This document shows, one piece after another, positions 3,001-5,737 of a stretch of 64,000 nucleotides of DNA. The DNA is taken from assembly GCF_054482525.1 (NCBI RefSeq), contig NZ_CM137006.1; one strand, 5' to 3'. Numbering within the stretch: the first letter of the stretch is position 1; each line of letters begins with the position of its first letter. The position numbers were made by a program, and so were the translations under genes. The notes under the pieces were generated by a model that saw only the letters and a list, made by a program, of their open reading frames with translations, made no database searches and was not told where the DNA came from.

Positions 3001-5737
3001 CCACGGTTTGCCCGGTTTCCACCAGCTGCGTGGTGCCAGTCAGCGTTAACGCCGCGCCTTTTTCTGTGGCATTAATAATGTCATCGCCGGAGACGGTATT
3101 GATGGTGATAAGCACCGCGCCCGGATTGACTTCCACGTTACGATCGATGGAAACCGGGTTCCCGGCGGGGTCCGTTGCGCTGGCATTAACCACTATCGTA
3201 CCCGGCGTCAGCGCCTGTAAATCTGCCGCAGGCACGCCTATCTGCCAGTTGCCGTTGCTGTCGGTCACCCCCTGGTAGGTGTTGCTACCGAGTAAAACAG
3301 TGACCACTCTTCCAGCGGGAAGATTGGTACTACTACCGGTGATGATCAGGTTTTGCTGCTGCTCAACGGCATTGATCACATCATCGCCCGCGATGGTGTC
3401 AATGCGCAGCCCCGGCAGCCCGGCACTGATGGTGATATCAAGCGCGCTGCTGCCTGTGTTGCCATGCACATTGGTGACCGAGGCGTTAATGGTTAACGCG
3501 CCATCGCCCAGCGCCTGTAAATCTGCCGACGGAACGCTCACGCTCCAGGTGAGATTACTGCCCACCGTCGCCGTGTAAGTATTGCCGCCCAGCACAAGGG
3601 TTACCGTGTCGCCCTGCGCGGCGCCCACGACAACGCCGCTCAGAGTTTGATCTGCCGCCGCTTCGGCGTTGTTGACAATGTTATCGCCCGCAAAAGTGTT
3701 GATGATCACCTGCGGCAGCACCGTATCGACCAGTAAATTACTCTGCGCGGTGCCGGTATTACCGATAACATCGGTAGCGCTGGCAGTGACGGTGTAATTG
3801 GTGTTCGCCAGGTTCACAACATCGCTCACCGGAACGTTCAACGACCAGACGCCGCCGCTAACCTGAGCGCTATACGTGACATTATTCAGCGTCACGCTAA
3901 CCGTGCCACCGTCCGGTAAATTGCTGGTGCCGCTTAACGTTAGCGGCTGCCCGGATTCCTGTGCATTCAGGACGTTATCGCCGCTGATAGTATCTATCGT
4001 TACCTGTGGCGCAACGCCCGCCAGGGTGATGTTATGGCTCGCCGAACCGGTGTTACCAGCGGCATCGGTCACCGTAACGACAATATCGTTGGCCCCGCGA
4101 TCCAGCGTGCGGGTTACCGCCGGGTCCAGCGCCACATTCCAGCTGCCATCTGCCAGCACGATGCCCGTCAGGACATGAGTGCCCAATTTCACCGTTACCG
4201 TATCGCCAGGAGAAGCACCGCTAACTTGTCCGGAGATGATCTGCGCGACGGCCTGCTCGGCATTATTAAGAATATCGTCGCCCGCCACGGTATTAACACT
4301 GACCACGGGTGCTGAGGTGTCTACCGTGAAATTCGCGCTGTGGCTGGTGCTGTTCCCTGCCCGATCGCTGACACTGGCATTGACAGCGTAATTACCCTCC
4401 GCCAGTGCCTGGACTTCCGTGGCAGGCAGCGTCACTTGCCAGGTTCCGTCGCTACCGACGGTTGCTGTATGGCCTTTCCCGTTGACGGTCAGTGTTACGG
4501 TTTGCCCCGCTTCTGCATTCGACGTGCCGCTCAGTACCAGCGAGGCGTTATGTTCCGCAGCACTGATAATGTTGTCCTGAGCGATGGTGTTGATGGCAAG
4601 CGTTGGCGGTTGGGTATCGACCGTTAGCAGCTGCGCGCCGGTGACCGTATTGCCTGTGACGTCTTTCCCACTGACCAGCACTGCCTGATTCCCTTCGCCT
4701 AACGCCTGTGCATCGGCGGTCGGCACCTGCACGCTCCAGGCACCGTTAGCGCCTACGCTGGTGGTGTAGGTTTTGCCGTTTAGCGTAACGGTGAGTTCTG
4801 TTCCCTGCGCCAGATGGCTACTGGTACCAGAAAGCGTAAACCGGGCGGCCTGTTCGCTGGCGTTAATAATGTTATCGCCTGCGGTGGTGGCAACCTGCAC
4901 GCTGGCCTGACTATTGTCGATGGTTAACGTTATCGAACCGGCGTCAGTGATGGTACTGCCGACAATTTGCACCACTGACCAGGTATGTTCACCTGCACTT
5001 TGCGTGGGTAACGAGACACTCCAGTGACCGTTGTTGTCTACCTGAGTACTGGCAATAGTATTGCCGTTACTGTCTTTAATCTGAATAGTCGCCCCCGCCT
5101 GCCCGCTGCCGCTAAAGGTTGGCGTGGTGTCATCGGTGATGTCATTGGTGGCGAGAATGCCGCGCTGATCGCCCTGATTATCGATAACTAAAAATGATGG
5201 TGTGGCAACACCCGGTTCAGGCACAGGCTCAGCGGGTGGCGTAGGGTTATTAATCACTTCCGTTTTCGAGTCGCCATCACCACCGCTTGCCAGCAGTGCA
5301 CCAAGCGCACCACCACCTACCGCCGCCCCCGCCAGCCAACCCCACGGGAAGGCGCTGGTCTGAGCAACGGTATCAAGAAATGGCGCAATGCTTTCAATCG
5401 CAGTGGTCTGGGCAGTCAGTTCTACGGGGGCTAATCCACCCGCAGCAGTATCGGCGAAGGTGACATGGGTTAGCTGTTGCCCATCGGCAAACACCAGTTC
5501 CGATTGTTCAGCTGTATTCGCCGCTTGCAGGAAATAACCGTTGCAGCGGATCACCGTGCCGTCCTGCATATAGATCAGCAGGTCATTTCCTTCACGGACG
5601 TAACGCGCAACGGCAGAGGCCTGAGCATGAACCTGCACCACGGAAGGCTCATAAATAACAACCGTGACGTCGCCAGGATTAATCAGCGTTTGTTTGACGG
5701 ATGTTTTACGCGAAATAACATCAATAATCAGGCTCAT
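1..5737 (-). CDS. Giant Ig-like repeat adhesin, type I secretion substrate (BapA/LapA/RTX-exoprotein-like); 5' part only, 3' end lies beyond window position 1
   Basis: Reverse-complement translation from ATG (complement of 5735-5737), RBS AGGAA upstream, in-frame stop 5768-5770 upstream: MSLIIDVISRKTSVKQTLINPGDVTVVIYEPS...; continues into ~100-aa T/V/G/A/N-rich repeats typical of bacterial Ig-like domains. The ORF track lists no long minus-strand ORF here, consistent with a frame open to the window edge. GC-rich repeats visible at ~300 bp and ~1.8 kb spacing. Confidence 0.85.
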   Translation of the reverse strand, partial: MSLIIDVISRKTSVKQTLINPGDVTVVIYEPSVVQVHAQASAVARYVREGNDLLIYMQDGTVIRCNGYFLQAANTAEQSELVFADGQQLTHVTFADTAAGGLAPVELTAQTTAIESIAPFLDTVAQTSAFPWGWLAGAAVGGGALGALLASGGDGDSKTEVINNPTPPAEPVPEPGVATPSFLVIDNQGDQRGILATNDITDDTTPTFSGSGQAGATIQIKDSNGNTIASTQVDNNGHWSVSLPTQSAGEHTWSVVQIVGSTITDAGSITLTIDNSQASVQVATTAGDNIINASEQAARFTLSGTSSHLAQGTELTVTLNGKTYTTSVGANGAWSVQVPTADAQALGEGNQAVLVSGKDVTGNTVTGAQLLTVDTQPPTLAINTIAQDNIISAAEHNASLVLSGTSNAEAGQTVTLTVNGKGHTATVGSDGTWQVTLPATEVQALAEGNYAVNASVSDRAGNSTSHSANFTVDTSAPVVSVNTVAGDDILNNAEQAVAQIISGQVSGASPGDTVTVKLGTHVLTGIVLADGSWNVALDPAVTRTLDRGANDIVVTVTDAAGNTGSASHNITLAGVAPQVTIDTISGDNVLNAQESGQPLTLSGTSNLPDGGTVSVTLNNVTYSAQVSGGVWSLNVPVSDVVNLANTNYTVTASATDVIGNTGTAQSNLLVDTVLPQVIINTFAGDNIVNNAEAAADQTLSGVVVGAAQGDTVTLVLGGNTYTATVGSNLTWSVSVPSADLQALGDGALTINASVTNVHGNTGSSALDITISAGLPGLRIDTIAGDDVINAVEQQQNLIITGSSTNLPAGRVVTVLLGSNTYQGVTDSNGNWQIGVPAADLQALTPGTIVVNASATDPAGNPVSIDRNVEVNPGAVLITINTVSGDDIINATEKGAALTLTGTTQLVETGQTVVVKFAGQTFTTTVQAGGGWSLTIPASAVSSLADGAAEITATVTNISGNTGDTSRTITVDSQAPALSIDSLTADNIINAAESGQDLPITGTTDAQPGQTVTVTLNGQTYQGVVQSDGTWSVTVPAANVGALADGNATVTASVNDVAGNPTSVSRVALVDATPPVVTINPVATDNVINTPEHTQAQIISGTVTGAQAGDIVTVTLNNSDYTTVVDGSGNWSLGVPASVVSGLVDGSYPVSVSVTDRAGNSGSQSLTVTVNTAAPLIGINSIAGDDVINASEKGADLQITGTSDQPVNTAITVTLNGQNYTTTTDASGNWSVTVPASAVTALGQANYTVTAAVTSSIGNSATASHNVLVDSALPGVTINPVATDDIINAAEAGVAQTISGQVTGAAVGDTVTITLGGNTYTTTVQANLSWSVSVPAADIQALGNGDLTVSASVTNQNGNTGSGTRDITIDANLPGLRVDTVAGDDVVNIIEHGQALVVTGSSSGLAEGTPLTVTINNVEYTTAVQADGSWSVGVTAAQVSAWPAGTINIAVSGESSAGNPISITHPVTVDLTPAAITINTIATDDVINGAEKGADLTLSGTTTNVEAGQTVTVTFGGKNYTASVASDGSWSATVPAADLALLTDGSASTQASVSNINGNSASAVHNYSVDSSAPTIIINTVASDNIVNASEADAGVTVSGSTTAEAGQIVTITLNSPTVQTYQATVQADGSWSINIPAADLEALTDGSHTLTATVNDKAGNPASTTHNLAVDLTVPVLTINTIAGDDIINAAEHGQALVISGSSTGGEAGDVVTVTLNSKTYTTTLDASGNWSVGVPAADVTALGSGPQTVTASITDAAGNSDDASRTVTVNLTAPTIGINTIATDDVINAIEKGADLQISGTSNQPAGTTITLTLNGQNYTATTDAAGNWSTTVPASAVGALGEASYTVTANVTDSAGNSNSASHNVQVNTALPGVTINPVASDDIINAAESDVAQTISGQVTGAAAGDTVT

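Follow-up and report, generated by a model that had tools for sequence, protein, structure and literature searches.

The stretch of DNA analysed here, referred to below as the window, comprises 64,000 nucleotides of contig NZ_CM137006.1 (RefSeq assembly GCF_054482525.1). Positions 1-5737 hold, on the minus strand, the 5' part of siiEA, the gene for the giant type I-secreted, immunoglobulin (Ig)-repeat adhesin of O-island 28, which appears in the RefSeq annotation of Escherichia coli as “siiEA, BapA-related adhesin SiiEA”. The gene starts with the ATG at 5737-5735, and its frame is open over 1912 codons until it runs off the start of the window. Directly upstream, on the same strand, lies a gene for a TolC-family outer-membrane protein (5840-7195; TIGR01844, 415.6 bits, cut-off 225), which is named in PMC12758282. 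From its N-terminus onward, SiiEA is made up of (i) an all-beta fold of the BapA prefix-like type, residues 1-120 (5378-5737); (ii) within that fold, a variable loop, residues 95-104 (5426-5455), between the strands 89-94 and 105-114, which contains the tetrapeptide TAAG at residues 97-100 (complement 5438-5449); (iii) a conserved, Gly/Ala-rich, hydrophobic, transmembrane-like segment, AFPWGWLAGAAVGGGALGALLASGG, residues 129-153 (5279-5353); and (iv) an acidic and Pro-rich linker, DGDSKTEVINNPTPPAEPVPEPGVATPSFLVID, residues 154-186 (5180-5278), which extends up to the first Ig-like domain (Big_13/Big_6), beginning near residue 187. The N-terminus is followed by Ca_tandemer and Ig-like repeats.

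In the initial annotation, positions 5350-5737 were taken for a retention module like that of the adhesin LapA, and TAAG for the site at which the periplasmic protease LapG cuts such a module under the control of LapD and cyclic di-GMP (c-di-GMP); secretion in two steps, with the adhesin retained on the surface, was predicted on this basis. The reading that we prefer, to which we give a probability of roughly 75%, is that 5378-5737 encode the BapA prefix-like domain of SiiEA, that TAAG is a chance match, and that the N-terminus probably stalls export without any regulated proteolysis.

Three family models recognize the domain. Residues 5-132 match the Pfam family BapA_N (PF22783; E 2.4e-19), residues 5-69 match the NCBIfam BapA prefix-like model NF033677 (71.9 bits against a cut-off of 35, E 2.9e-20), and residues 1-234 match the NCBIfam SiiEA model NF047714 (503 bits; cut-off 425). 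When 1.84 billion cluster representatives were searched exhaustively with phmmer, just 152 relatives of this N-terminus came up, and the named ones, all giant Ig-like adhesins, belong to Enterobacter cloacae, Citrobacter amalonaticus, Pantoea, Dryocola, and one Pseudomonas. The AlphaFold2 model, which was built on a family alignment of 44 sequences, predicts with confidence an all-beta fold with strands up to residue 114 and a mean predicted local distance difference test score (pLDDT) of 82.5; averaged over blocks of 10 residues, pLDDT is 90-98 for residues 1-120, except for a value of 80 at residues 91-100. Structural neighbours in AFDB50 number 478 at E<=0.001, and the 50 best are overwhelmingly BapA prefix-like by name or fragments of the same adhesin. 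Names found among the neighbours are “BapA prefix-like domain-containing” and “adhesin for cattle intestine colonization”, and they come from Enterobacterales, Halomonas, and Acinetobacter. The N-terminus of SiiEA is a member of an already catalogued family within an already named adhesin, and this family, BapA_N, occurs mostly in the Enterobacterales and is distinct from the retention module of LapA (Pseudomonas fluorescens) and MpIBP (Marinomonas). Compared by sequence with solved structures, the N-terminus gave only weak, low-complexity matches to NDUFA11, which were dismissed as compositional.

The N-terminus occurs in E. coli in two allele groups (5230-5737), one of about 790 genomes with 95-100% DNA identity and the other of 159 genomes near 88%. 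An allele with 87.7% DNA identity retains 94% protein identity across roughly the first 200 residues, and such protein identity despite about 88% identity of the DNA points to purifying selection on the N-terminal module.

Against the known retention modules, SiiEA showed no detectable similarity in sequence, profile, or fold, and the positive controls worked in the same comparisons. With the retention-module model NF033682, the SiiEA N-terminus gave no match at E<=10; the control, a LapA N-terminus with 95-98% identity to genuine “retention module-containing” proteins of Pseudomonas, scored 149.6 bits (cut-off 50, E 6.5e-44). Searched against solved structures, a profile of the BapA_N family found nothing meaningful and did not match the Marinomonas MpIBP module (5ix9). 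A control profile of 19 LapA-type N-termini matched 5ix9 at 1.4e-19 and aligned the signature LQxAIxAGxDPT...AAG. When the two family profiles were compared directly with hhalign, the probability was 14.9%, over 28 columns only. In other words, the SiiEA module is outside the LapA/MpIBP family by sequence, profile, or fold; it resembles the known retention modules poorly, and the LapA-like identity first proposed for it has to be replaced by membership of BapA_N (PF22783/NF033677/NF047714).

The position of TAAG had been given exactly; its significance is another matter. From the composition of the 1912 residues, 0.09 occurrences of the expression [TAP]AA[GV] would be expected in every 80 residues, and it arises in 25% of the shuffles of residues 70-150 because this region is rich in Ala, Gly, and Thr. 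It occurs three times in the 1912 residues of the window and eight times in an intact 6324-residue allele of the adhesin (locus L013, 8185-27159), which is about what composition predicts. Across the 44-sequence alignment, loop residues 95-104 have the highest column entropy (2.84 bits versus 1.89 in the core), with 12% gaps. The block-mean pLDDT of the strand that follows TAAG (105-114) is 93-97, and the loop belongs to the predicted fold, not to a flexible tail. At the aligned columns of the tetrapeptide, the motif is fitted by the query itself (TAAG) and by one of the 43 homologues (AAAG); anywhere within 60 residues from the SELVF motif, it is present in 3 of 58 sequences. Enterobacter orthologues (55-62% identity) have ADAAVG or AGDASG at this site, and the motif was not found in the orthologues of Enterobacter, Citrobacter, and Pantoea or in a Pseudomonas member.

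The modules of the LapA type are quite different in this respect. A108, A109, and G110, as well as the upstream D99-P100-T101, are invariant in 19 of 19 such modules, and [TAP]AAG is found in 29 of 30 LapA-type homologues, down to about 45% identity. The extended expression DPxxx...[TAPS]AA[GV] is matched by all 19 modules but by none of the 44 sequences of the BapA_N family. “Helix 1 and DPxxxLxx” have been described as the determinants of LapG binding (Smith et al. preprint, 10.1101/198937). SiiEA has no DPxxxLxx upstream of TAAG, and the position of “helix 1” is predicted by AlphaFold2 to be a beta strand. TAAG looks like a chance match, a lineage-specific coincidence in a variable surface loop rather than a LapG site; a cleavage site that homologues do not conserve, that lacks DPxxxLxx, that sits within a predicted beta fold, and that a quarter of shuffles reproduce is difficult to maintain.

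The genes that such a site would require were not found at the loci either: no gene for LapG (PF06035) or LapD (PF16448) is present in the island of two E. coli strains, in the 64-kb window, or up to 10 kb away from five homologous adhesin genes, the Pseudomonas one included. As a control, a real LapG/LapD pair was recovered beside lapBC and lapA on a Pseudomonas contig (LapG, 417 bits on NF045674; LapD, 1104 bits on NF045673); of the Pseudomonas lapA loci, the first two were without LapG/LapD and the third carries both. A tblastn search with LapG against 72,556 plasmids gave 142 matches, led by Vibrio and rhizobia, and Escherichia is not among the ten leading genera. A blastn search with the lapG-lapD DNA of Pseudomonas and Vibrio matched nothing among 5,426 E. 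coli genomes, an insensitive test with little power at 30-50% protein identity. Apart from its own model, the best NCBIfam match of LapD is CsrD, an E. coli protein that does not bind c-di-GMP (PMC10333796); the match is confined to the cytoplasmic HAMP-GGDEF-EAL part. In published LapG cleavage assays of LapA-like N-termini, lysates of the E. coli expression host with the empty vector served as the no-LapG control (10.1101/198937). Our literature search found no statement on whether E. coli has LapG or LapD. Nothing ties SiiEA to LapD or c-di-GMP, and the c-di-GMP-regulated release that had been suggested as possible finds no support in the genes of the island, the window, or the five homologous loci. 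The sole c-di-GMP gene of the window is pdeB (ylaB; 42765-44321, plus strand), which encodes a CSS-EAL c-di-GMP phosphodiesterase; it lies about 37 kb off, in the core genome and outside the island.

The Gly/Ala-rich hydrophobic stretch that had also been pointed out is real, but it lies at residues 129-153, nearly all of it below position 5350, where the proposed retention module had been bounded. With a column entropy of 1.84 bits, its conservation equals that of the domain core; Gly and Ala make up 54% of it, and its flanks are acidic. The best 19-residue Kyte-Doolittle window scores 1.4 in E. coli and at least 1.6 in 30 of the 44 family members (median 1.78), compared with none of the 19 LapA-type modules (median 0.71). 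As predicted from hydropathy, the unusual feature of SiiEA is this conserved transmembrane-like segment, which is lacking in LapA-type modules. At the position of the linker behind it, poly-Gly or Asp runs are found across the BapA_N family. The linker of the window, which joins the hydrophobic segment to the first Ig-like domain, also carries a small indel at 5207-5227 (residues ~171-177), where the window has PPAEPVPEPGVATPSF and three other E. coli alleles have PPAEPGNATPSF.

Beyond the edge of the window, the island continues with a type I ATP-binding cassette (ABC) exporter and an HlyD-family adaptor and is followed by the core gene cueR. The exporter belongs to the LssB subfamily (TIGR03375; 836 bits against a cut-off of 693), a model on which LapB scores 973 bits, and the two exporters share 33% identity. 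The TolC-like pore of the island has 24% identity (E 5e-25) to the presumed lapE of a Pseudomonas locus, by which we mean the OEP-family gene (PF02321) that is adjacent and divergent to lapA. The pore adjoins the adhesin at each of the five homologous loci. Four of these also have the ABC exporter and the adaptor, both of which are missing from the 34.5-kb contig of the fifth, L016. The C-terminus of the intact 6324-residue allele is a type I target domain (TIGR03661). In the same allele, the strict repeats-in-toxin (RTX) expression Dx[L/I]x4GxDx[L/I]xGGx3D has no match, with one loose nonapeptide, and a published LapA-finder would therefore skip this allele regardless of TAAG.

From these components, a working model can be assembled. 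SiiEA is exported by its own type I system, made up of the TolC-like pore, the LssB/LapB-class ABC exporter, and the HlyD-type adaptor. Type I secretion substrates leave the cell C-terminus first, so the N-terminal fold of about 120 residues would be the last part to reach the channel. There, the fold, the hydrophobic Gly/Ala segment, and the Gly/Asp/Pro linker would probably stall the final step of export. About 65 low-complexity residues follow the fold, and the tunnel of a TolC-like protein spans roughly 40 extended residues, as estimated from the ~140 Å length of TolC; the low-complexity stretch is thus long enough to thread the tunnel. The stalled adhesin would then stay tethered without regulated proteolytic release, as has been shown for the module of PA1874. 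Membership of the family, the lack of conservation of the motif, the class of the transporter, and the gene content of the island are observed here; both the retention role and the placement of the hydrophobic segment are what we infer from this arrangement. It has been argued that the LssB/LapB exporter group and dedicated TolC-like pores serve adhesins that are retained by their N-termini, and the PA1874 module retains its adhesin although LapG does not cut it (10.1101/198937). Because SiiEA combines a LapB-class exporter, a dedicated pore, a folded N-terminus, and a long low-complexity stretch, protease-independent retention by its N-terminus is plausible by analogy with such systems. Of the secretion mode that was first predicted, surface retention by an N-terminal module is supported by this analogy only (an exporter of the LssB/LapB class and an own TolC-like pore), whereas the proteolytic release is not supported.

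Several points weigh against this reading. (i) TAAG does fit the published rule, [T/A/P]AA[G/V] within residues 70-150. (ii) It is invariant across the E. coli alleles, even in the group at 87.7% DNA identity. This invariance is uninformative because the neighbouring residues are equally invariant: residues 93-119 do not vary at all, with flanking variation at 92 (V/I) and 120 (F/Y), and nearly every position of residues 85-120 is the same among the E. coli alleles. (iii) The layout of a fold, a di-Ala, a Gly-rich stretch, and extender repeats is LapA-like, and it comes with a LapB-class exporter. (iv) The hydrophobic segment has no confident structure, pLDDT being below 50 for residues 125-153. 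(v) A chromosome-wide absence of LapG/LapD is presumptive, since it rests on DNA-level searches and on the tblastn search of plasmids. (vi) A review reports Lap-type regulation in Pectobacterium atrosepticum and Citrobacter youngae, which also belong to the Enterobacterales (PMC6584795), and such systems are thus no strangers to this order. (vii) No experimental support for a retention role of BapA_N was found in the literature.

Among the alternatives, one would deny the N-terminal module any tethering role: the adhesin would be fully released and re-bind the surface, and the domain would serve folding, the pacing of export, or self-association. The sole functional paper on the island describes one-step secretion without dealing with how SiiEA is anchored (PMC12758282). 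Moreover, the gene is split in E. coli O157:H7, so that the piece with the secretion signal lacks the SiiEA N-terminus, yet the island supports adherence there. However, conservation is strong in the module and in the hydrophobic segment, the divergent allele has largely kept the protein sequence of its N-terminus as described above, and LapB-class exporters have been linked to retained adhesins. We regard a module without a tethering role as unlikely.

According to another explanation, the hydrophobic Gly/Ala segment is itself a membrane anchor, which would either move sideways out of the ABC exporter into the inner membrane or insert into the outer membrane, and it is this anchor, not a plug, that would tether the adhesin. 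The transmembrane-like hydropathy in 30 of the 44 members, a richness in GxxxG-type spacing, and conservation equal to that of the domain core in a segment that LapA-type modules do not have all speak for it. On the contrary, the hydropathy of the E. coli segment is below the threshold, it is flanked by acidic residues and hardly any Lys or Arg, unlike classical anchors, structure prediction does not support a helix, and an anchor in the inner membrane is hard to square with passage through a TolC-like tunnel. An anchor of this kind seems to us quite improbable. Finally, that TAAG is a true LapG-type site, cut by a periplasmic bacterial transglutaminase-like cysteine protease (BTLCP) under LapD/c-di-GMP control to release the adhesin, is very hard to believe, since the consensus match inside residues 70-150, the LapB-class exporter, and the conservation within E. 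coli face a module of another family, orthologues in Enterobacter, Citrobacter, and Pantoea and a Pseudomonas member without the motif, a site inside the predicted fold with no upstream DPxxxLxx and a strand at the “helix 1” position, examined loci with no LapG or LapD, and, as the closest other NCBIfam relative of LapD, a CsrD that is alike in HAMP-GGDEF-EAL only and does not bind c-di-GMP (PMC10333796).

Stalling by a BapA prefix-like domain, which remains our preferred reading, can be set beside the known systems. The closest is the family of Salmonella BapA and other BapA prefix-like adhesins, which shares with SiiEA the N-terminal domain (matched above the cut-offs), the unit of four genes (adhesin, TolC-like pore, ABC exporter, and adaptor), and the Ca-stabilised Ig-like repeats. 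There is no defining difference, since SiiEA is a member of this family, and TAAG is peculiar to the E. coli lineage. With LapA and MpIBP, SiiEA has in common a module that opens a giant adhesin secreted by a type I system, an exporter of the LssB/LapB class, a dedicated TolC-like pore, and a Gly-rich stretch after the module. It differs from them in the lack of any detectable similarity in sequence, profile, or fold; the signature of a helix followed by DPT-[TAP]AAG is not conserved in the SiiEA family, only SiiEA has the transmembrane-like segment, and only the LapA locus has LapG and LapD nearby.

PA1874 of Pseudomonas aeruginosa, with its degenerate site, is a precedent for LapG-independent surface retention of a type I adhesin (10.1101/198937); its module has been described as resembling LapA in secondary structure, whereas that of SiiEA is of another family. 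SiiE, encoded in Salmonella pathogenicity island 4 (SPI-4), is, like SiiEA, a giant Ig-repeat type I adhesin of an enteric pathogen. Its retention is controlled by the N-terminus without proteolytic processing and involves coiled-coil repeats and the SiiAB proton channel (PMC6272769). The E. coli island (two strains) has no SiiAB-type genes, and despite its name, the N-terminus of SiiEA is of the BapA type.

The window belongs to the chromosome of E. coli, and its region with the adhesin N-terminus and the pore (4800-7300) is 100% identical to that of E. coli strains PCN033, SCU-102, and 19KM1776. Of 5,426 complete E. coli genomes, 958 have this region, as a single copy and on the chromosome in every case. 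At about position 2515 of the window (gene nucleotide 3223, minus strand), the window has CCGG where the RefSeq record of PCN033 has CCG, and siiEA is called “frameshifted” in PCN033 because of this 1-nucleotide deletion. That siiEA is a pseudogene in the window too, as annotated in PCN033, was considered and ruled out by the one extra G and the open frame. The frame being open through 1912 codons, the window represents another strain or a corrected sequence, or else the call in PCN033 is erroneous. Just past cueR, a gene for a YadA-like trimeric autotransporter adhesin occurs together with small hypothetical genes (L002, 26825-28120; L013, 2747-3763), which amounts to a second adhesin locus next to the island. 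Elsewhere in the window, an IS200C transposase gene (23754-24212, minus strand) lies between adk and htpG.

What do these results mean for the adhesin and its relatives? The rule [T/A/P]AA[G/V] within residues 70-150, when used by itself, yields false positives in Ala/Gly/Thr-rich N-termini, as it does here, and it is unreliable unless it is joined with the presence of LapG/LapD and the conservation of the motif. Were TAAG cut by LapG, c-di-GMP-controlled shedding would govern adhesion and offer a possible drug target; the evidence says otherwise, and a release mechanism of SiiEA should be sought elsewhere than in LapG. E. coli O157:H7 has recently been shown to require O-island 28 for early adherence and for colonisation of the gut (PMC12758282). 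Tentatively, and at less than even odds, we speculate that the BapA prefix-like domain, the Gly/Ala segment, and the poly-Gly/Asp linker may constitute a second, protease-free class of type I adhesin anchor that is evolutionarily unrelated to LapA/MpIBP. If so, either the TolC-like tunnel or a membrane would house the hydrophobic segment, and this second class of anchor would account for the attachment of the O-island 28 adhesin, Salmonella BapA, and their relatives to the cell surface.

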